DNA from: an uncultured Lentisphaeria bacterium
Lineage (GTDB): Bacteria > Verrucomicrobiota > Lentisphaeria > JABSQK01 > JAJFLO01
DNA length: 32,000 nt
Direction of reading: 5' to 3'
Assembly (NCBI GenBank): GCA_951812855.1
Contig: OX638337.1
Location: 870,001-902,000, forward strand
Shown: piece by piece, positions 2,185-31,502 of the stretch
Position numbering within the stretch: position 1 is the first letter of the stretch
Layout: every line of letters starts with the position of its first letter
Notes under the pieces: model-generated
What the model was told of the DNA's origin: nothing
Databases searched by the model: none
What the model saw: the letters and a program-made list of their open reading frames with translations, nothing else
Made by a program: the position numbers and the translations under genes

Positions 2185-2658
2185 ATGCAACTTATTATTA
2201 CGCTTATAATAATGGGAATTATTTTACTCCTGATTGAAATTATTATTCCCGGCGGCATAATCGGAATATTGGGGGTATTTTTTATATTGGCAGGCATTGC
2301 TCTGGGATTTAGCAAAAGTACCGGAATAGGCATTATATTATTATTTTCATCAGCTGTCGCGGGTTTAATCTGTCTCTGGATCTCAATAAAATATTTTCCA
2401 AAATCAAAGGTAGGGAAACAACTTTTTTTAGATCAGGATGCAAAAGACTGGCAGGCCTATGAAGAAAGTAATCAGAACCTACTGGGTAAATCAGGAATAT
2501 CCCACACCCAATTAAAACCCTCGGGAATAGCAATTTTTGATAATAAGCGTATCGATGTGATTACGCAGGGTGAACATATTGAAAATAACGAAAAAATAAG
2601 AGTAGTAAAAGTTGAAGGAAACCGAGTTATAGTTTCTATTTCAGAACAACAATTATGA
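2185..2658 (+). CDS. NfeD-family membrane protein (short form: TM helices plus C-terminal OB-fold)
   Basis: The N-terminal half is polytopic and hydrophobic. The C-terminal segment GKSGISHTQLKPSGIAIFDNKRIDVITQGEHIENNEKIRVVKVEGNRVIV matches the NfeD OB-domain pattern. It sits directly upstream of floA, like B. subtilis yqeZ-yqfA. Confidence 0.8.
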   Translation: MQLIITLIIMGIILLLIEIIIPGGIIGILGVFFILAGIALGFSKSTGIGIILLFSSAVAGLICLWISIKYFPKSKVGKQLFLDQDAKDWQAYEESNQNLLGKSGISHTQLKPSGIAIFDNKRIDVITQGEHIENNEKIRVVKVEGNRVIVSISEQQL

Positions 2659-2715
2659 GTTTGATTGAGGAATCCAGTCAAACTTTCCCAAACGCTTAAA
2701 CTAAGGGTGATAGGT

Positions 2716-3717
2716 ATGCTCAACACATTGCTTGTATTTGGTGCCGTAGCACTAATGATTGGAATCGTTATTGTTTTCTTTATTTTTTTGTATTTCGGTC
2801 AAATTTGGATTCGTGCATATTTTTCTAATGCAAGAGTCAGTTTCGGAAATTTAATTGGCATGAATTTAAGAAAAATTCCCCCGGCACTTATTGTAGAAGC
2901 ATTCATCCGGGTGAGAAAGGCAGGACTTGATGATATTGATACCAAAAGCCTTGAAACACATTTTCTATCTGGAGGTGATATACTTTCAGTTGTCAATGCA
3001 TTAATTGCAGCAGATAAAGCCGGTATAACTTTAAATTTCAAAAATGCAACCGCAATAGATCTTGCCGGACGCGACGTATTTGAAGCAGTTAGAACGAGTG
3101 TTAATCCCAAAGTCATCGACTGTCCCGATCCGGCAAAAGGTCGCCAAACCATAGATGCAGTCGCAAAAGACGGCATACAGTTAAAAGCTAAAGCAAGGGT
3201 TACAGTTCGAGCAAATATTGATCGTCTGGTTGGCGGTGCAACTGAAGAAACCATTATTGCCCGTGTTGGAGAAGGTATCGTAACGACAATCGGATCATCG
3301 GATTCACACAAAACAGTTTTAGAAAATCCAGATTTAATTTCAAAACGAGTGTTAGCCAAAGGGTTAGACAGCGGGACTGCATTTGAAATTTTGTCTATTG
3401 ATATCGCAGATATCGATGTTGGAACGAATATCGGAGCACAGCTGCAGGCAGATCAGGCCGATGCTGATAAACGTGTTGCACAAGCAAAAGCAGAAGAACG
3501 ACGGGCCGCAGCCGTTGCATTGGAACAGGAAATGGTTGCCAAAGTACAAGAAATGCAGGCAAAGGTCGTTGAAGCTCAAGCCGAAGTGCCTCTGGCAATG
3601 GCTTCAGCCTTCCGAGAAGGTAATTTAGGTATACTGGATTATTATCGTATAGAAAATCTAAAAGCTGATACTGAAATGAGATCGTCAATTTCTGATGGCG
3701 GGACTGAACAAGAATAG
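2716..3717 (+). CDS. floA: flotillin-like protein FloA (UPF0365/YqfA family, SPFH superfamily)
   Basis: Near-colinear with my recollection of B. subtilis YqfA/FloA: [94 protein letters not shown] prefer the ATG at 2716 (N-terminal TM helix follows) over the track start at 2665. Confidence 0.92.
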
Positions 3718-4517: not shown

Positions 4518-5162
4518 ATGCTCTATATAATTGTATTTTTTGTATCATATCTTTGTGGTGGAATTCCCTTTGGCTTACTCATTGGAAAATATAATGGCGT
4601 TGACGTAAGATCAGAAGGCAGTGGTAATATTGGTGCTACTAATATTCTAAGAATATGCGGGAAAAAATGGGGATATTTTTGTTTTATATTCGACACATTA
4701 AAAGGATTTGTTCCTGTAGTACTCTCAAAAAATTTGGCCTCTTTAAATCAACTCAGTCATCATCATTACATACCGATTATCGTCATCACAGGCGTCGTTA
4801 TGGGACATATTTGGAGTCCCTATATAAATTTTAAAGGCGGGAAGGGTGTTGCAACTTCTGCAGGAGCATTACTGGCAATTACCCCAATTGCCACATTGAT
4901 TTCGCTTCTCATTTGGTATTTGGTGTTTTTAAAATTCCGATATGTTTCACTGGCAAGTATAATTGCAGCGGCTGCATTACCGATTATTGCCGGTTCGATG
5001 ACAATGCTCTGTCACCATCCTTATACTCTAATTCCTAAACCAATTTTGTTTTTTTTGTCACTATTATCAATGATAGTGATAATTAAGCACAAAAGAAATA
5101 TTAATAAATTGTTGAACCGTACTGAAAATAAATTTATAAAAAAAGAATCACAGGCATCATGA
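4518..5162 (+). CDS. plsY: glycerol-3-phosphate acyltransferase PlsY
   Basis: SYLCGGIPFGLLIGK and GSGNIGATNILR signature motifs, FKGGKGVATSAG, polytopic membrane profile. The ATG at 4518 is preferred over the TTG at 4509. Confidence 0.92.
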   Translation: MLYIIVFFVSYLCGGIPFGLLIGKYNGVDVRSEGSGNIGATNILRICGKKWGYFCFIFDTLKGFVPVVLSKNLASLNQLSHHHYIPIIVITGVVMGHIWSPYINFKGGKGVATSAGALLAITPIATLISLLIWYLVFLKFRYVSLASIIAAAALPIIAGSMTMLCHHPYTLIPKPILFFLSLLSMIVIIKHKRNINKLLNRTENKFIKKESQAS

Positions 5163-6157
5163 AAATATCAGTAATTAGTGACGGAGCCTGGGCTACGGCT
5201 ATCGCATTGTTATTAATTAAAAATAAACACAGCGTCCATCTCTGGGGGCCATTTCCCGAATACATTGAGGAAATGAAATTGACGAGAAAAAACACGCGTT
5301 ATCTCAAAGGACAAGCCCTGCCCGACGAGATAACCCTCACTCATTCTATGAGTGAGGCGATTGACAAAGCTGAGCTCATTGTAATGGCATCTCCCACCCA
5401 ATATGCACGAAAATGCCTTCAGCAAATTTCCGAATTTGGACTGACATCCAACCAAATTATTGTCAATGTTTCAAAAGGGATAGAAACCGGCTCCCTTAAT
5501 CGTATCAGCCAAATCTGCACAGACGTTATTGGAGACATCAATTACGTCGTACTTTCAGGGCCGAGTCATGCCGAAGAAGTTGTAAAAGGTATGCCGACTG
5601 CAGTTGTTGCAGCTTCGGATAATCCAGATATATCACAAAAGGTTCAAAACAGTTTTATGAATCCAGTTTTCAGAGTATATACTACCGGAGATGTGACCGG
5701 AGTAGAATTGGGCGGTGCTCTAAAAAATGTATATGCCATCGCAGCAGGCATAAGTGATGGTATGGGTTTGGGTGACAATTCTAAAGCTGCATTAATTACA
5801 CGTGGCATTGCTGAGATGGCACGACTGGGAGTTGCACTGGGTGGCCGACAGGAAACGTTTTCCGGATTAAGTGGAGTTGGAGACATGATTGTAACGTGTG
5901 CCAGTTCACATAGCCGAAATCGATTTGTTGGAGAACAGATGGGTAAAGGACTTACTCTGAAAGCGATCAAAGAAAAAATGGGATTTGTAGTAGCCGAAGG
6001 AGTTGAAACAACAAAAAGTGCACATGCATTGGCAAAAAAATGGAATGTTGATACCCCGATTATTAACGAAGTGTACTCAGATCTTTATGAAGGTAAAAAT
6101 CCAAAGCATGGGTTAACAGAACTGATGACGCGGAAAGCAAAAACTGAATTTGAATGA
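5159..6157 (+). CDS. gpsA: NAD(P)H-dependent glycerol-3-phosphate dehydrogenase GpsA
   Basis: MKISVI..GAWATA Rossmann-type N-terminus, SKGIE, GPSHAEEV, GGALKNVYAIAAGISDGMGLGDNSKAALITRG. ATGA overlap with the plsY stop. Confidence 0.95.
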   Translation: MKISVISDGAWATAIALLLIKNKHSVHLWGPFPEYIEEMKLTRKNTRYLKGQALPDEITLTHSMSEAIDKAELIVMASPTQYARKCLQQISEFGLTSNQIIVNVSKGIETGSLNRISQICTDVIGDINYVVLSGPSHAEEVVKGMPTAVVAASDNPDISQKVQNSFMNPVFRVYTTGDVTGVELGGALKNVYAIAAGISDGMGLGDNSKAALITRGIAEMARLGVALGGRQETFSGLSGVGDMIVTCASSHSRNRFVGEQMGKGLTLKAIKEKMGFVVAEGVETTKSAHALAKKWNVDTPIINEVYSDLYEGKNPKHGLTELMTRKAKTEFE

Positions 6158-6217
6158 GTTCAAATCATCGATCTCAATCAAGCAGCGAATAAATAATATA
6201 ATTTTACAGAAAAATAT

Positions 6218-7495
6218 ATGTCTATGGATAGTTTTGTCATTGAAGGTGGAAACAGACTCTCCGGAGAAATAACTCCCGGTGGAAATAAAAATGCAGCACT
6301 GCCCATGATCGCAACAGCATTACTGACTGACGAAGAAATTATATTTGAGAATATGCCAGATATTCTTGATGTCAAAACAATGCTCCAAATTGCCGAAGCC
6401 CTGGGTGCGAAAATTAAATTGGAAGAATCGACATTGAGTATTCGCTGCTTTAATATCAACCTGTTTGAAATTCCGCAAAAACTATGCTCAGCAGTTAGAG
6501 CAAGTATACTGTTTATCGCTCCGCTGCTGTTTCGATTGGGAAAGGCAAAAGGTTTTCCTCCTGGCGGAGACGTTATTGGCCGCAGACGGCTTGATGCTCA
6601 TTTTTACGGACTGAGAACATTAGGAGCTGAAATTGACGAAATGGAATTTGAATTTTCAGCTCCAAATGGACTTAAAGCACGCGATTTATTTTTTGATGAA
6701 TCAAGCGTAACAGCAACAGAGCATATCATGATGGCAGCAGCAGTCGCTGATGGTACTACAATTATTAGAAATTCTGCAAGTGAACCCCACGTCCATGACC
6801 TCGCTGTATTGTTAAATAAAATGGGGGCCAAAATTTCCGGACTAAATACAAATACCCTCACGATAACCGGAGTTAAGTCGCTTCACGGGACCAGACACAA
6901 AATTGTATCCGACCATATCGAAGCTGCAAGCTATCTGGCGTTAGTTTCCGCTGCCGGTGGTGGAATTACAGTAACCAATACCGTAAGAAGTCATTACTGG
7001 ATGATTCAGCGAGTCTTTCAGAGATTTAATATTCACCTTGAAATTGGTAGCGATTATATCACTCTTTTACCTGATCAAATACCTGTCATTCAGAGAGACT
7101 CTGGCGGTGCCCTGCCTACAGTAGCAGATGGCCCCTGGCCTCAATTTCCTTCAGATTTAATGAGTACAATGCTGGTACTTGCCACTCAGACGAAAGGGAC
7201 AGTATTGTTTTTTGAAAAAATGTTCGAGAGTAGAATGTATTTTGTCGACAGACTTATTCAAATGGGTGCAAGTACAATTGTATGTGACCCGCATAGAGTC
7301 GTCATATCAGGAAAATCAGAACTGAGAAGTCAACAATTAAGCAGCCCGGATATCCGAGCAGGTATGGCACTGATTATTGCTGCACTGTGTGCAAAAGGCC
7401 AAAGTGAAATCCAAAACGCTGCGATTATTGATCGCGGCTATGAAAAGATGGAGGAAAAGCTAAAATCGATTGGTGCGGTCGTGAATCGAACCTGA
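6218..7495 (+). CDS. murA: UDP-N-acetylglucosamine 1-carboxyvinyltransferase MurA (Asp at the active-site Cys position)
   Basis: FVIEGGNRLSGEITPGGNKNAALP N-terminus, colinear with my recollection of E. coli MurA, and C-terminal IDRGYEKMEEKL. The active-site loop reads PPGGDVIGRRRLD, versus LPGGCTIGARPVD in E. coli. Confidence 0.95.
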   Translation: MSMDSFVIEGGNRLSGEITPGGNKNAALPMIATALLTDEEIIFENMPDILDVKTMLQIAEALGAKIKLEESTLSIRCFNINLFEIPQKLCSAVRASILFIAPLLFRLGKAKGFPPGGDVIGRRRLDAHFYGLRTLGAEIDEMEFEFSAPNGLKARDLFFDESSVTATEHIMMAAAVADGTTIIRNSASEPHVHDLAVLLNKMGAKISGLNTNTLTITGVKSLHGTRHKIVSDHIEAASYLALVSAAGGGITVTNTVRSHYWMIQRVFQRFNIHLEIGSDYITLLPDQIPVIQRDSGGALPTVADGPWPQFPSDLMSTMLVLATQTKGTVLFFEKMFESRMYFVDRLIQMGASTIVCDPHRVVISGKSELRSQQLSSPDIRAGMALIIAALCAKGQSEIQNAAIIDRGYEKMEEKLKSIGAVVNRT

Positions 7496-13623: not shown

Positions 13624-14064
13624 TCAACCTGATATAATCCGTTTAAGATCCTGTTCGACCTGTTTCTTTTTCATTACTTCTCGTTTGTCTGATTTGGTTT
13701 TTCCTTTGCATGCCCCTAAACATACTTTGATTTTACCTTTTTTCAGATAAAAGGACAGAGGGATAAGAGTAAGACCTTTTTTCTGAGTATTACTTGCAAT
13801 TTTTCGAATTTCAGCCTTATGCAGTAACAGTTTTCGTACACGTTTGGGTTCGTGATTTTCACGATTTCCTTCTTTATACTCACTGATATGAACATTATAT
13901 AATTGCACTTCTCCGTCTTGAATCTGTGCATAGGCATCTACAAAATTAATATTGTGTAATCTGCACGACTTTACTTCGGTCCCCGTAAGTACGATTCCAC
14001 ACTCATATTTATCCAGTACCTGATAATTATGACAGGCTTTTTTATTTTTAGCTAAATCCGGCAT
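13624..14064 (-). CDS. smpB: SsrA-binding protein SmpB
   Basis: KNKKACHNYQVLDKYECGIVLTGTEVKS, HISEYKEGNRENHEPKRVRKLLLHK..I, GLTLIPLSFYLKKGKIKV. Confidence 0.93.
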   Translation of the reverse strand: MPDLAKNKKACHNYQVLDKYECGIVLTGTEVKSCRLHNINFVDAYAQIQDGEVQLYNVHISEYKEGNRENHEPKRVRKLLLHKAEIRKIASNTQKKGLTLIPLSFYLKKGKIKVCLGACKGKTKSDKREVMKKKQVEQDLKRIISG

Positions 14065-14382
14065 GTCTTTATTGGTTGTTTATAAAGAAGTTTATTGTAT
14101 TATTATCTACATCCCAACACCGAAACACCCATTTCTAAATACACTGATTTAGGTCAAAGATCAGGATGATACAGATGTTTCATTAAATGAAAAATATCAA
14201 TAACGAAGCATTCATGGAAATACCATATATATCATTTCAGAAGGTGGTAGAATATATATCAAATCATATGTGCATTTCGTGATTCTATGGACAATGACAC
14301 CAATAGACTATCAGCAAGAGACTCTAAATTGAAAAATATCAATATCCAATTATTTTCGATAGATTTTTTAACAGAATAACCC

Positions 14383-14458
<76 letters not shown>

Positions 14459-24097: not shown

Positions 24098-24616
24098 TCA
24101 CTTTTTCCTGCTTTTCTCATCCTGAATTTTATTCCATTCATCGATATACTTTAATGCAATCATTTTATCTGTTATCTGAACCAAATTTTCCCAGTTTGAA
24201 TGGGTTGCAGCTTTGGTAAAATTATAGCTGCCTGTTAATACTGTTTTTTTATCTATTACAACAAACTTATTATGCATCGAGTGATGTTTCAGCATGGATA
24301 TATACTCAATGTCTAAATTTTTTGATTTCAGTAAATCAAAAACCGATTTGCTGTAATTATAAGACGCCTGTTTCTTATCAACTTTTAATTTTACCGAGAT
24401 ACCCTCTTTTGATTTTTTTATGAGTGCCCTGGCAATTTTTTTATTAGAAAACGAATATACAGCAACCAATATTTCAAATTTTGCTGACTGAATATTTTTC
24501 AGCAAAATAGTTTCGCACTCTCCTCTAAATGCTGTCCGAACAGTCTTGGAATGACCTGCACTTATCCACGTAAATAATAATATAATAATGAATAGTATTC
24601 TTGATTGGCGAATCAT
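24098..24616 (-). CDS. secreted PLD-superfamily (single HKD) Nuc-like endonuclease
   Basis: Signal-peptide-like N-terminus (ILFIIILLFTWISAGHS) when started at M13. One HKD motif, HNKFVVIDKKTVLTGSYNFT. Size and layout resemble the Nuc/BfiI-type PLD nucleases. Confidence 0.85.
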   Translation of the reverse strand: MIRQSRILFIIILLFTWISAGHSKTVRTAFRGECETILLKNIQSAKFEILVAVYSFSNKKIARALIKKSKEGISVKLKVDKKQASYNYSKSVFDLLKSKNLDIEYISMLKHHSMHNKFVVIDKKTVLTGSYNFTKAATHSNWENLVQITDKMIALKYIDEWNKIQDEKSRKK

Positions 24617-24941
24617 AAATCCACTTCTGTCCAGGCAGTTTGTGCCGGCCATTGAAAAATGTTAAAATTCATAAAATATTACACTGACCAATGCAATATC
24701 AATTCATCTATATTGGAGTGATGGCGTTGATCACGCATTATTGATAAAAGGCATGTCGCCACTATAACTTCAAAATGAATTGAAATTTCGTAATACTCAA
24801 GTAACTGAATAAAGAACTGGACATATATTCCTTTAAGTCTAAAATGCCATGTAAAATTCTCCCCCTAATTAATAGTGACAGTCTTGCCATTTTGATTTTA
24901 ATATCTGACAGACTGCAGCATACAATCAGGATAAATATTTC

Positions 24942-28064: not shown

Positions 28065-28268
28065 ATGGAGTCTAAGATAAAAGTTATTTTTACAATTTTA
28101 TTAGTTGTTATTTGTAACGTGGCAAATGCTGTGCCTAGTTGGGTAAATGAAAGTATCAGAAATCTTAGTTCTTCTGATGAAAAAGCTCAGAGAAAAGCAG
28201 CGTTTTGGCTTTCAGGGTATTTTACGGATAACGGTTCAGAGTCAGATCCACAAATAATCGATGTTTAA
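28065..28268 (+). CDS. small secreted protein (signal peptide plus one HEAT-like repeat)
   Basis: KIKVIFTILLVVICNVANA-VPS looks like a signal peptide. NLSSSDEKAQRKAAFWLSG resembles a HEAT/PBS-lyase repeat. No obvious RBS. Start taken at the second Met of the track ORF. Confidence 0.45.
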   Translation: MESKIKVIFTILLVVICNVANAVPSWVNESIRNLSSSDEKAQRKAAFWLSGYFTDNGSESDPQIIDV

Positions 28269-28299
28269 TTAAACTAGGTATATATAAGAAGGAGTTTCA

Positions 28300-28731
28300 A
28301 TGAGTACCAAACAAATTCATGTGTTTATAAGCCACTCCTGGGCTTACTCAACCCATTACAACACACTATCCGACTGGATCTTTAATGGTAATTGGAGTGT
28401 TAGTCAAGCTTCCCTTGATCTAAGGGACTATTCAGTTCCAAAAGACGACCCCATTCATGATGCATCAAATGATACACAATTAAAAAATGCAATATATGAC
28501 AAAATATCACGCTCACACGTAATAGTCATACCAACTGGTATGTACGCCAACTATAGCAAGTGGATAAAGAAGGAAATTGAAGGAGCTGATTCATATAGTA
28601 AGCCAATTCTTGCAGTTAATCCTCATGGGCAAGAAAAAAAGGCCGGTGTTGTTGTAGATAACGCGGATAAATTCTCGGGGTGGAATAAACAACCAATCAT
28701 TAATGCCATTTGGAAGTTATACAATCAATGA
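28300..28731 (+). CDS. TIR-like domain protein (DUF1863 / ThsB-like small TIR)
   Basis: Strong RBS (AAGGAG). HVFISHSW at the N-terminus (beta-A), DYSVPKDDPIH, VIVIPTGMYANYSKWIKKEIEGA (the S-x-W-x3-E motif, Glu92 at nt 28573-28575), KPILAVNP. This pattern is recalled from the small bacterial TIR-like family often annotated as 'molecular chaperone Tir'/TIR domain-containing. Confidence 0.75.
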   Translation: MSTKQIHVFISHSWAYSTHYNTLSDWIFNGNWSVSQASLDLRDYSVPKDDPIHDASNDTQLKNAIYDKISRSHVIVIPTGMYANYSKWIKKEIEGADSYSKPILAVNPHGQEKKAGVVVDNADKFSGWNKQPIINAIWKLYNQ

Positions 28732-29168
28732 GCGATAAATCTGAGAATCTAGCGGTTTACGGTATTTATGTTCAAACGATTACTGCAAACGAGCAAAGGC
28801 GACAAGCCTTAGCTGCTTTTTACCTTTCTTTGGTTGCCGCAGGCATTGCGTTATTGGCGTCTGATGAAATAACTCAATATGTTGCTATTGCAATACCAAT
28901 ATCAATCGTTTCTATTGTCTGGTTTTCTACAATTAAGTACTTTAGAAATTTGGCTAAGGCCAAATTTAAGGTCATCGAAGAGTTGGAAAATGACTTTGTT
29001 ATCAAGCCTTTCGCCAAGGAATGGGAGTTCTACAAATCTGGTGGAAGTAGGTTTAAAATTAGTCTCACCCATATTGAGCTAATTATACCAGTAATGATTT
29101 TTATAGTTTCAACTTTATATGTTTTATATTCGTTCTACCAGTTTATAAAATTATGGTTTGAGTGCTAG
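28728..29168 (+). CDS. 3-TM membrane protein, putative effector partner of the TIR-like protein (SLATT-like topology)
   Basis: The ATG at 28728 overlaps the TIR-gene TGA (ATGA). An N-terminal amphipathic helix (YVQTITANEQRRQAL) is followed by a tight TM hairpin (AAFYLSLVAAGIALLAS / YVAIAIPISIVSIVWFS), a basic helical linker and a third TM (IELIIPVMIFIVSTLYVLYSFY). No soluble sensor domain is present. Confidence 0.6.
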   Translation: MSDKSENLAVYGIYVQTITANEQRRQALAAFYLSLVAAGIALLASDEITQYVAIAIPISIVSIVWFSTIKYFRNLAKAKFKVIEELENDFVIKPFAKEWEFYKSGGSRFKISLTHIELIIPVMIFIVSTLYVLYSFYQFIKLWFEC

Positions 29169-29193: not shown

Positions 29194-29306
29194 ACATAAC
29201 AAATTTGTCATAGGGACATTTTTGCAGTGCTCCGTTTTGCGGTGGCTGTGCCACTTTACCGCAAAACTACACAACCCCAAAAATGCCCCATACAAAGGCG
29301 TTATAC
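29194..29306 (+). repeat. attC recombination site (113 bp)
   Basis: ACATAAC-AAA-TTTGT(C)AT.GGG.CATTTTTG ... CAAAAATGCCCCAT-ACAAA-GGC-GTTATAC. The arms pair with unpaired (extrahelical) bases and enclose an inner 10-bp stem, GTTTTGCGGT/ACCGCAAAAC. It ends 22 nt before the next ORF's ATG. Confidence 0.6.
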
Positions 29307-29327
29307 CCACAAGGAGAATTAAGAAGC

Positions 29328-29756
29328 ATGAAAGAGCAAGAATACGCAGGGTTTTGGATTAGATTCGGTGCAGAGCTAATCGACTTAGTAATAAGGATTA
29401 TCGTTCTGTGTGTCCCGCTTTCGTTTATTTATGGCGAAGAATACTATGGTTTTTGGCGTGTGCTGTTGGGAGATATTGTTCCCATGGTTGCAACAGTTTG
29501 GTTTTGGCTACGTTTTTTTGGAACACCACGAAAAATGGCAACTAAACTAAAAATCGTCGATGCAAAAACAGAAAATAAACTATCTCTCGGGCAAGCTATC
29601 GGTAGATATTTTGCCTATATACCAGCATGGCTACCATTAGGGCTAGGGGTTATCTGGGTTGGTATAGACAAAAAGAAACAAGGCTGGCATGACAAATTAG
29701 CCGGTACCGTTGTCATCAGAACCAATGAGTCAGAGCCAGTAAATTTCGATGAATAA
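29328..29756 (+). CDS. RDD-family membrane protein
   Basis: AAGGAG RBS before the ATG at 29328. YAGFWIRFGAELIDLVI, TPRKMATKLKIVD, GWHDKLAGTVVI: the three signature R/D/D positions and the TM pattern of the RDD family. Confidence 0.85.
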   Translation: MKEQEYAGFWIRFGAELIDLVIRIIVLCVPLSFIYGEEYYGFWRVLLGDIVPMVATVWFWLRFFGTPRKMATKLKIVDAKTENKLSLGQAIGRYFAYIPAWLPLGLGVIWVGIDKKKQGWHDKLAGTVVIRTNESEPVNFDE

Positions 29757-29839
29757 GGTATAAGCACTCGGACAGCAAAAAGCGTTGCTTTTTGTTCCCT
29801 CCGCTGCGCTCCGGCTGTCCGCTTAGCTTGGCGTTAAGT
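29752..29839 (+). repeat. probable attC site (degenerate R'' box)
   Basis: TAAGC(ACT)CGGACAGC ... GCTGTCCGCTTA outer stem, inner hairpin AAAAAGC-GTT-GCTTTTT, ending in GTTAAGT (29833-29839, fits GTTRRRY) 17 nt before the next ATG. The 5' box (AATAAGG/TATAAGC) lacks a clean AAC. Confidence 0.4.
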
Positions 29840-29855
29840 GTCTTAAGAGGAAATT

Positions 29856-30242
29856 ATGCAAATTCTAGGATTCATTGTTTTTCTGAATGTATCGCATCTT
29901 GGAGTAATGCAAATTTTTCGCCTTACTACCTGTCATGCGTATTTTTGTAAGGCGATCCCCTTATTAATTCTTTACGGTGCTGGTGTTGCATGGGTTCTCT
30001 TTGCTCTGGGAATGCACCCATTCTTTTTGTGGCAGCTAATTCTAGCTTCAATTTGGCTGTTTGTTATTGGCCGCAAACAAACCAAAATGGCAGAGGCCAT
30101 GCTGTCAATGGCAGGTGAAGATGCAGATTCAGTGCGTTTAATCGCTGTATCTACTGTAAAAACAATCCGTTACTATACATATAGTTCATTTGTCTATGTT
30201 GCAGTATTCTCAGGCACATATATTTGGCTATACAACACTTAA
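29856..30242 (+). CDS. hypothetical polytopic membrane protein (single-gene cassette)
   Basis: RBS AGAGGA. 128 aa with 3-4 hydrophobic helices. No family recognised. Its stop codon lies inside the R'' box of the following attC. Confidence 0.55.
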   Translation: MQILGFIVFLNVSHLGVMQIFRLTTCHAYFCKAIPLLILYGAGVAWVLFALGMHPFFLWQLILASIWLFVIGRKQTKMAEAMLSMAGEDADSVRLIAVSTVKTIRYYTYSSFVYVAVFSGTYIWLYNT

Positions 30243-30308
30243 CAAGGCCAGCCAGAGGGGTGACAAAACCGCTGCACGCTTTTGTCACCCTGCTGGCGGG
30301 CGTTAGGC
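30237..30308 (+). repeat. canonical attC recombination site (72 bp)
   Basis: R'' ACTTAAC (RYYYAAC), L'' GCCAG(C)CAG, 10-bp stem GGTGACAAAA/TTTTGTCACC around an 11-nt loop, L' CTGCTGGC, R' GTTAGGC (GTTRRRY). One arm carries unpaired bases. The upstream ORF's TAA is embedded in R''. Confidence 0.8.
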
Positions 30309-30328
30309 AAAAATTAAGGAAATAAGCT

Positions 30329-31189
30329 ATGTCAACAACCGCAATTGTATTCATTATCGCAACAATATTATTTTTTATATTGGCATTTTTAGGGATAAAA
30401 ATAGTTCCCCAGAGTGAAAATCACGTTGTTGAGAGGTTTGGTAAATATAGAAAGACCTTGAAAGCGGGTTTGAATTTTGTAGTACCGTTACTTGATAGGA
30501 TTGCAAAACGCTTAAGCATTCTTGAACGGCAATTGCCCGAAAAACCACATGATGTTATCACTAAAGATAATGTTACGATAGTTATAACAAACACCATATT
30601 CTTTAGAATAATTGATGCAGGGAAGGCTGCATATAGAATTCATGATTTGGAAGGTGCCATAAGTAATGCTGTTACTGGCACAGTCCGTTCTATTATTGGA
30701 GCCATCGAATTCGATGAGGTTCAGTCTCATAGAGAGCAAATTAATCAAAAGATTAAATCGAGTCTTGAAGAAACATGTTCCGATTGGGGAGTAGATGTTA
30801 CTCGCACTGAGATATTGGATGTCCAAGTTGATCAAAAAACCCAAACAGCAATGCATCTCCAAATTAGTGCCGAGCGTGATAGGCGTGCATCAGTGATGGA
30901 AGCAGAAGGTAAGAAAAAATCAATGGAGCTAGAGGCGGATGCAGCTCTCTATGCCGCACAAAAACAAGCTGAAGCCAAAAGAATGCTTGCAGATGCCGAT
31001 GCTTACGCAACAAAAACAATCGCAGAAGCAATCAATAATGAAGGGGCATCAGCTATTCAATTTGAAATACAAAAAAAGCAAGTAGAGGCAATTGGAGAAC
31101 TTTCGAGTTCTAATAACGCCAAAGTAATCCTACTACCAAATGATATCATAAGTGCATTAACTTCACTCCCTAATATATTTGGAAAATGA
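30329..31189 (+). CDS. SPFH/band-7 (stomatin/QmcA-like) membrane protein
   Basis: N-terminal TM anchor, then VPQSENHVVERFGKYRKTLKAGLNFVVP...DVITKDNV...AISNAVTGTVRSIIG...R..I.....L......WGV.V..TEI.DV, and an Ala/Glu/Lys-rich coiled coil. Confidence 0.9.
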   Translation: MSTTAIVFIIATILFFILAFLGIKIVPQSENHVVERFGKYRKTLKAGLNFVVPLLDRIAKRLSILERQLPEKPHDVITKDNVTIVITNTIFFRIIDAGKAAYRIHDLEGAISNAVTGTVRSIIGAIEFDEVQSHREQINQKIKSSLEETCSDWGVDVTRTEILDVQVDQKTQTAMHLQISAERDRRASVMEAEGKKKSMELEADAALYAAQKQAEAKRMLADADAYATKTIAEAINNEGASAIQFEIQKKQVEAIGELSSSNNAKVILLPNDIISALTSLPNIFGK

Positions 31190-31455
31190 ATATGGAAATC
31201 CTGTATTCAATAAATTTTTGGCTGATTGTTGGGTTTTTTCTCGCTATTTTAGAAATATTTTCAGGCTTATTTATTGCACTGTGTTTTTCTGTGGCTAGCT
31301 TTCTTATGGCAATAGTATTTTGGTTGTGGCCTAACATTGGCATAGAATGGTATGAGATTATATTTCTACATTCATTTATTGGTTTTTCTGTAGCATCACT
31401 TACATGGCTGAAACTCCGAAGAAATCAAAAGGAACTTCCAGACATTAATGACTAA
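31186..31455 (+). CDS. NfeD-like membrane protein lacking the OB-fold domain
   Basis: ATGA overlap with the SPFH stop. 89 aa. FWLIVGFFLAILEIFSGLFIAL resembles the NfeD membrane module. Gene order matches qmcA-ybbJ. There is no C-terminal beta-rich domain. Confidence 0.55.
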   Translation: MNMEILYSINFWLIVGFFLAILEIFSGLFIALCFSVASFLMAIVFWLWPNIGIEWYEIIFLHSFIGFSVASLTWLKLRRNQKELPDIND

Positions 31456-31458
31456 ATC

Positions 31459-31502
31459 ACATAACCAGTGCATCCAGCCGACCGCTGGAAGCACAGTTCG
31501 TA
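31459..31502 (+). repeat. possible short or truncated attC site
   Basis: ACATAAC (identical to the box at 29194) followed by the CAGTGCATCCAGC-CGACC-GCTGGAAGCACAG hairpin (11/13 bp), then GTTCGTA. Shorter than typical attC sites, and the R' box is non-canonical beyond GTT. Confidence 0.35.

Follow-up and report, generated by a model that had tools for sequence, protein, structure and literature searches.

What is the function of two very small, overlapping genes, one for a TIR-like protein and one for a three-transmembrane protein, in the chromosome of an uncultured Lentisphaeria bacterium? The pair was found in a stretch of 32,000 nucleotides (nt) of contig OX638337.1 (positions 870,001 to 902,000), which is called the window here and to which all coordinates refer unless a related locus is named. 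A preliminary description, made from the letters alone, had proposed a compact immune module of a TIR and a small membrane effector on a cassette. The core of that proposal is favoured by the evidence below, while the novelty of the module, a SLATT-type partner and a third gene did not hold. We consider it probable (about 0.6) that the two genes form a Thoeris-type abortive-infection module and that this module travels as an integron gene cassette. The features concerned are as follows.

28300..28731, + strand: thsB-like gene for a 143-amino-acid (aa) TIR-like protein (PF08937), with a putative catalytic Glu92 in W88-x3-E92
28728..29168, + strand: effector candidate, a 146-aa protein with three transmembrane (TM) helices (PF24838, 8xMP), its length taken from the ATG within the ATGA overlap
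28728..28731, + strand: ATGA stop/start overlap, the TIR TGA over the 8xMP ATG, 4 nt
28289..28294, + strand: ribosome-binding site AAGGAG, 5 nt 5′ of the TIR ATG

The first protein matched the Pfam family ThsB_TIR (PF08937) with E=1.4e-15 and 58 bits, above the gathering cutoff of 21.2, as well as several PADLOC ThsB models (best 6e-9). An AlphaFold2 model built from 40 homologues was obtained with a predicted local distance difference test score (pLDDT) of 86.5 and a predicted TM-score (pTM) of 0.85. Its best matches in the PDB were EcThsB (8wcf), a B. cereus TIR (8fz9; TM 0.69/0.72) and MTH538 (1eiw), and further matches were ThsB-Tad3 (9b7d) and generic flavodoxin-like folds. Glu92, in the context W88-I-K-K-E92, was invariant across 40 close homologues and aligned with the glutamate of the Thoeris type IV, VII and VIII ThsBs in Table S1 of Yirmiya et al. 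(bioRxiv 10.64898/2025.12.03.692087). The two open reading frames (ORFs) with their overlap, the TIR fold and the conserved glutamate had all been read correctly in the preliminary description.

Thoeris was extended to eleven verified types in December 2025 (Yirmiya et al.). Type VII consists of a TIR and a SLATT effector (ThsH) with canonical cyclic ADP-ribose (cADPR) as the signal, and type VIII of a TIR and a CMP-hydrolase/TPR protein, also with cADPR; cADPR production was reported for three SLATT-associated TIRs, and the type VII system of Pseudohongiella nitratireducens defended E. coli (Yirmiya et al.). The window TIR was 60% identical to the verified ThsB of that system, whose locus was recovered in our set as L063 with a SLATT_3+SLATT_1 effector, and 41% identical to a type IV relative that makes N7-cADPR. 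Judged by sequence, the window TIR groups in one tight clade with ThsBs whose signalling has been verified by experiment. The clade, with 1427 matches, many at 70-95% identity, is very well conserved and horizontally spread.

The second protein had been described as having three TM helices and no recognisable ligand-sensing domain. The helices were confirmed by hydropathy (TM1 ~27-46, TM2 ~50-70, TM3 ~116-138), with which AlphaFold2 agreed, and no SIR2, Macro, SLOG or SAVED domain was detected by Pfam. However, the protein is a clear member of PF24838, the 'octameric membrane protein family (8xMP)', with E=2.6e-22 and 79.6 bits (cutoff 30), the match spanning profile positions 3-135 of 136. 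In the AlphaFold2 monomer model (pLDDT 80.5), helices run over residues 2-44, 51-87, 94-103 and 113-145, and a predicted cytoplasmic N-terminal helix leads into TM1. The loop at 45-52 contains no K/R, and 10 K/R are found in the cytoplasmic loop of ~45 residues between TM2 and TM3 (70-115). The conserved cytoplasmic motifs were Y11, TANEQRR (19-25), YFRxLAKAKF (71-80), E87, PF..E (94-98) and P121. Residues invariant even in distant members were Y11, R24, R25, W65, K79, F80, E87, E98 and P121, all on the predicted cytoplasmic side except W65 (TM2) and P121 (TM3). A full-library profile search recovered 2011 representatives of 50%-identity clusters at E<=1e-3, nearly all of them stand-alone proteins of 130-180 aa. 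Candidates for an informative domain fusion (P0152, P0215 and others) proved to be 8xMP only, or a likely gene-call artefact with CoA_binding_3. Nothing relevant was found in the literature searched for 8xMP, 'octameric membrane protein' or PF24838, and we infer an octamer only from the name of the Pfam family.

A SLATT-type identity of the partner was also considered and was rejected. No SLATT or DUF4231 match was obtained by Pfam at E<=1, and hhalign of 41 8xMP sequences against short or long SLATT neighbours gave a probability of 0.4-0.7%, compared with 97% for short versus long SLATT as positive control. The layout of 8xMP, a cytoplasmic helix, a TM hairpin and a further cytoplasmic helix, resembles that of SLATT effectors, and 8xMP may work like one of them.

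The ATGA overlap was read directly in a related locus (L094), and the tblastn coordinates in L091 and L093 were consistent with it, which suggests that the TIR and 8xMP genes are translationally coupled. The AAGGAG site was conserved in L091, and GGGAG was present in the same position in L094. Compared with the L091 copy, which is 94% identical, the ratio of nonsynonymous to synonymous substitution rates (dN/dS) was 0.09 for the TIR and 0.20 for 8xMP, indicating purifying selection on both genes; in more distant copies the synonymous sites were saturated, with the nonsynonymous proportion (pN) still at 0.08-0.24. Two other contigs of this organism carry the locus unchanged. A ThsB TIR gene is thus adjacent to a predicted effector gene in one operon with a 4-nt overlap, as expected of Thoeris.

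Conservation of the pair was examined by a GTDB scan with one genome per species. It gave 80 loci in which the TIR shared 55-73% identity with that of the window; they are spread over many bacterial phyla and include a few archaeal metagenome-assembled genomes (MAGs). Neighbours within 1.8 kb were classified with purpose-built profiles, and representatives were checked against Pfam. The commonest partner of this TIR clade was 8xMP (Pfam PF24838), which belongs to no verified Thoeris type and was present in 33/80 species genomes. SLATT proteins (SLATT_1/DUF4231 alone or SLATT_3+SLATT_1; type VII) followed with 23/80. TPR-S proteins (TPR-S/MAP3K_TRAF_bd), which correspond to type VIII if TPR-S is read as 'CMP hydrolase and TPR', and caspase-like proteins (Peptidase_C14; type IV) were found in 7/80 each, and none of these four in the remaining 10/80. 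In the opposite direction, all of 12 metagenomic loci found with an 8xMP alignment had an adjacent TIR. In 11 of them a member of this TIR clade lay directly upstream (truncated or frameshifted in three), and in the other one a different 265-aa TIR lay directly downstream. The synteny that had been predicted for the pair is therefore well supported.

The neighbour classes were intermixed along the TIR identity ranking, and the nearest genomic relatives of the window TIR (70-73%) were paired with TPR-S, SLATT and 8xMP. Members of one TIR clade thus stand beside four unrelated proteins, three of which match verified signalling-type effectors. Because the effectors are swapped within one TIR clade, a diffusible signal is favoured over a specific protein-protein partnership.

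The arrangement of the pair was variable. 8xMP was upstream of the TIR in many loci, and conservation was unequal within the same pair in L097 (71% identity for the TIR and 47% for 8xMP). The TIR-8xMP pair was found beside Peptidase_C14, DUF4145 and HNH-SRA genes in L103, between integrases and transposases in L106 (Deferrisoma) and on a plasmid of Synechococcus. When the window 8xMP was used as a tblastn query, only 9 plasmid records were obtained, none from Enterobacteria. In Anaerobium acetethylicum (L104, 671-3408), 8xMP lies between a TIR_2/ThsB_TIR protein of 159 aa and a ThsB_TIR protein of 135 aa, with a Peptidase_C14 gene just upstream, forming a multi-TIR, multi-effector island. In L100 (2944-4236), the gene immediately after that of a 160-aa 8xMP encodes a different TIR protein of 265 aa, whose tail is charged and coiled-coil-like, a sign that 8xMP is not restricted to a single TIR clade as partner. 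An Arenicellales MAG (L087, 1832-4863) carries a TIR with a 291-aa SLATT protein and then this TIR clade with 8xMP. A single TIR serving both SLATT and 8xMP was considered for this locus and rejected, as the genes form two tandem modules, the second TIR frame being interrupted after ~104 codons. Two tandem modules of a TIR and a membrane protein were also seen between the isc operon and lpxL of a Bathymodiolus endosymbiont (L003-L010 and L014, ~5001-7250). A 72%-identical TIR is followed there by a 141-aa SLATT_1/DUF4231 protein, and next come a different 141-aa ThsB_TIR and a multi-TM protein of 205-223 aa without a Pfam family. A conserved protein of 252-261 aa with no Pfam match, possibly an accessory gene product, was encoded upstream of the TIR-8xMP pair in L066, L077 and L080, which are Thermodesulfobacteriota, Dadabacteria or unclassified MAGs.

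We were also interested in whether this pairing had been catalogued before. In the accessible part of Table S1, Yirmiya et al. list a putative effector class '3TM', with at least 100 occurrences, beside TIRs of the same cluster. The TIR of one such entry (IMG 2676542066) is found, with identical sequence, in Anaerobium acetethylicum, where the neighbouring gene encodes a PF24838 8xMP, and two other '3TM' TIRs shared 94% and 82% identity with TIRs that stand beside 8xMP in the surveyed set. One '3TM' row (L072, Sphingobium) had no 8xMP neighbour, which fits the authors' own caution that per-row effector labels are noisy. On these sequence matches we take the 'TIR + 3TM' class to be the TIR + 8xMP pairing, and the window pair to be an instance of this catalogued, predicted Thoeris type, listed as putative by Yirmiya et al. 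The novelty claimed for the architecture was accordingly overtaken, since TIR + SLATT is verified as type VII and 'TIR + 3TM' was already listed as putative in 2025. Moreover, ThsB-containing two-gene cassettes of mobile integrons are known to protect against phage: in Tragantia (brc22/brc23) a ThsB homologue is combined with a ~300-aa protein (Kieffer et al., bioRxiv 10.1101/2024.07.02.601719).

A small ORF upstream of the pair (28050/28065-28268) had been placed in the same cassette and credited with a signal peptide and a HEAT-like repeat. The signal peptide is plausible, whereas the repeat was not recovered, as neither Pfam nor NCBIfam gave a match. The ORF was a singleton cluster in a collection of 15 billion proteins, and among ~100 related loci homologues were found only in contigs of the same organism. 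It also lies almost wholly outside the stretch shared with L091. Because it is outside that stretch and has no homologue in the related loci, the ORF was rejected as a third component of the module.

The cassette location, which the preliminary description had also put forward, was supported by attC-like sites and by the end of the L091 similarity at a GTT. Sites were judged by their boxes (consensus R″ RYYYAAC and R′ GTTRRRY) and by the DNA fold of the bottom strand.

28234..28299, + strand: 5′ leader of the cassette, with strong L091 similarity from 28258 and weaker similarity back to a GTT at 28234
29194..29306, + strand: attC-like site of the TIR-8xMP cassette, a 113-nt imperfect hairpin with bulged bases just 3′ of the 8xMP stop
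30237..30308, + strand: canonical attC of a neighbouring cassette, R″ ACTTAAC and R′ GTTAGGC, exact consensus, z -6.1

The site behind the pair has R″ ACATAAC (29194-29200) and R′ GTTATAC (29300-29306), each 6/7 to consensus, and its bottom-strand fold was -26.6 kcal/mol (z -4.6; z -7.6 for the equivalent L091 site). DNA similarity to L091, 94% over the pair, ends inside R′, at GTTAT, and L091 continues beyond R′ with a different ORF that has its own attC-like site. When both strands of the whole window were scanned for hairpins closed by AAC...GTT, 30237-30308 ranked first and 29194-29306 second, by a clear margin, and no further such hairpin was found in the 3 kb beyond the window. The canonical attC follows a 128-aa TM ORF (29856-30242), 1 kb 3′ of the TIR-8xMP pair, and its ends resemble the L091 attC at 1491-1591. 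The TIR of L094 has an attC-like site directly 5′ of it (z -5.9; its end is GTTATGT), and the ACATAAC box seen in the window also follows 8xMP there. The left boundary is degraded or blurred in the window. The GTT at 28234 aligns with R′ (GTTATGA) of the attC preceding the pair in L091, and no well-formed attC was found 5′ of 28234 in the window (the fold of 28150-28275 was not significant, z -0.26), after rapA (z -1.2) or after the RDD gene (z -0.9 to -1.2). The window is otherwise ordinary chromosome, with plsY, gpsA, an EPSP-synthase-family gene, queA, smpB, lexA, clpP, a lipid A acyltransferase gene, ribD, rapA and others, rapA being directly upstream of the cassettes. Hairpin attC sites and a GTT breakpoint are thus present without the intI, attI and Pc of a complete integron, and from its sequence the locus is most aptly called a small attC cluster without an integrase (CALIN-like), beside rapA.

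Taken together, a mechanism can be proposed in which the 143-aa ThsB-like TIR would sense phage infection, and its Glu92 would serve in converting NAD+ to a cyclic ADP-ribose isomer. The signal would most likely be canonical cADPR, because this is the product of the nearest verified relative. It would bind the 146-aa 8xMP on a conserved cytoplasmic surface of positive charge, made up of the N-terminal helix (RR24-25) and the post-TM2 helix YFRxLAKAKF. In the inner membrane 8xMP would then oligomerise or open and so collapse membrane integrity, and phage replication would be halted; the identity of the signal, ligand binding, the pore or oligomer and the defence phenotype itself are what we infer in this model. 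A more specific proposal, to which we would give even odds, is that 8xMP is a new, SLATT-unrelated and very small (~146 aa) membrane effector gated by cyclic ADPR. This proposal holds jointly that 8xMP is among the smallest Thoeris effector candidates and stands beside TIRs of the type IV/VII/VIII clade more often than any other partner, that its ligand pocket is formed between protomers by the invariant RR and K-x-K-F cytoplasmic helices, and that marine bacteria carry it on a mobile integron cassette.

Several points weigh against the Thoeris-type module. The identity of the signal is uncertain, N7-cADPR, the product of the type IV relative, being the alternative. In unverified types the TIR itself could be an NAD+-depleting effector, and about half of the tested systems gave no defence in a heterologous host (Yirmiya et al.). 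No experiment on any TIR + 8xMP pair was found in the literature searched. PADLOC 2023 has no model for the 8xMP partner, and neither has NCBIfam. No relative of 8xMP was found in the PDB by sequence or by fold, and no fold match to a viral structure was found in BFVD. Because 8xMP shows neither detectable SLATT homology nor a solved or viral structural relative, the argument for its effector role comes from context alone. As to expression, a scan of the window ORFs of 90 aa or longer detected no integrase, and neither attI nor Pc was found in the 32-kb window. Promoter-like sites were no more frequent in the window than by chance, and none stood out. Expression is unproven because there is no integrase or Pc and the promoter-like sites are at chance level.

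These points bear on three other explanations. The roles of the two proteins could be reversed, 8xMP being a sensor or anchor for envelope perturbation or genome injection that activates the TIR as an NAD+-depleting effector. Yirmiya et al. leave such an arrangement open for the unverified types, the variable gene order with 8xMP often upstream would suit it, and a cassette-borne membrane protein, Deva, which is predicted to be octameric, has been proposed to act at genome injection (Kieffer et al.). We regard the reversal as unlikely, since an interface between a sensor and an effector protein would be hard to keep through the swaps among SLATT, caspase-like, TPR-S and 8xMP partners seen for TIRs 55-73% identical. 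Moreover, relatives in the clade were shown to make diffusible signals, and the TIR is much better conserved than 8xMP within the same pairs, as in L097. It is quite improbable that the cassette lies silent here or is in decay, as a promoterless passenger of an integrase-less array with no current function; this explanation concerns the expression of the pair, not its design. Besides the missing intI, attI and Pc and the chance-level promoter-like sites, the degenerate attC upstream of the cassette and the truncated or frameshifted TIRs of the related loci L095, L096 and L098 speak for it. However, both ORFs are intact, full-length and carry the conserved motifs, dN/dS is low against the closest copy (0.09-0.20), the locus recurs unchanged in the two other contigs, and read-through from rapA is possible.

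Very improbable is a toxin-antitoxin-like addiction module, in which a membrane toxin and its TIR partner would stabilise the cassette array and no phage would be sensed. Chromosomal cassette arrays commonly carry toxin-antitoxin cassettes, and the pair is a small two-gene operon, apparently translationally coupled, inside a cassette array; a TIR + SLATT pair was also seen beside ParDE and ParAG on a plasmid. On the other hand, the catalytic glutamate of an NAD-processing TIR is strictly conserved here, members of this TIR clade act in verified signalling systems that are triggered by phage, and the TIR-8xMP pair also occurs outside arrays, in contexts like those of defence islands. The Thoeris-type module therefore remains our preferred reading.

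Other genes of the window deserve a brief record. Those at 29283-31500 are also cassette-like and comprise an RDD-family gene (likely start 29328), the 128-aa TM ORF with its canonical attC, a Band_7/SPFH gene (30329-31189) and an 87-aa membrane ORF (31192-31455), followed by a short hairpin at 31461-31500 bounded by ATAAC...GTTCG (z -4.4). At the other end of the window (2185-3717), an NfeD-like gene and then a FloA flotillin gene make up a second SPFH-type pair, and the genome therefore has two NfeD/SPFH-like operons, one of which seems to lie in the cassette cluster. A small PLD-like (PLDc_2) protein is encoded at 24098-24652 on the - strand, divergent from rapA and shortly before the cassette cluster; nucleases of the PLD family are known from defence contexts. 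The stretch 13624-14455 contains smpB and a tRNA, the latter at 14383-14455. The tmRNA gene ssrA often adjoins smpB, and no tmRNA was found in the window by Rfam at the gathering threshold.

The locus is real and interpretable, yet it was already anticipated in the literature, and on its sequence it would be a new member of a catalogued, putative Thoeris class. What is added here is that 8xMP is the commonest partner of the TIR clade among the loci surveyed and that the pair is packaged as an integron-style cassette. If confirmed experimentally, TIR + 8xMP would add another verified Thoeris type, and its effector is small enough for a tractable model of the opening of a membrane assembly by a nucleotide signal. 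With its cassette context the pair would document a signalling defence system carried by integron-style recombination outside clinical mobile integrons.

Compared with known systems, the window pair is closest to the 'TIR + 3TM' class of Yirmiya et al. (Fig. 1C, Table S1), with which it shares the TIR cluster (2734565194), near-identical motifs and an adjacent three-TM protein of ~140-175 aa; no structural difference was found. Type VII Thoeris is likewise a two-gene operon, its P. nitratireducens ThsB being the 60%-identical relative noted above. It too has a small helical membrane effector in which an N-terminal cytoplasmic helix precedes a TM hairpin, and membrane disruption induced by the signal is the expected mechanism in both. 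However, type VII is defined by a SLATT effector, ThsH, whereas the window effector is an 8xMP protein with a third TM helix and other conserved motifs. Type II Thoeris (ThsB + TM-Macro, signal His-ADPR) resembles the proposed module in its TIR signal, its membrane-spanning effector and killing by membrane damage, but the window effector has no Macro domain and the window TIR is of another subclade. Tragantia, compared by description only, is also a two-gene integron cassette whose first gene encodes a ThsB homologue, and the predicted fold of its second protein resembles Deva. In contrast to the 146-aa 8xMP of the window, the Tragantia B proteins have ~300 aa, and Tragantia is carried in mobile class 1 integrons of Enterobacteria.

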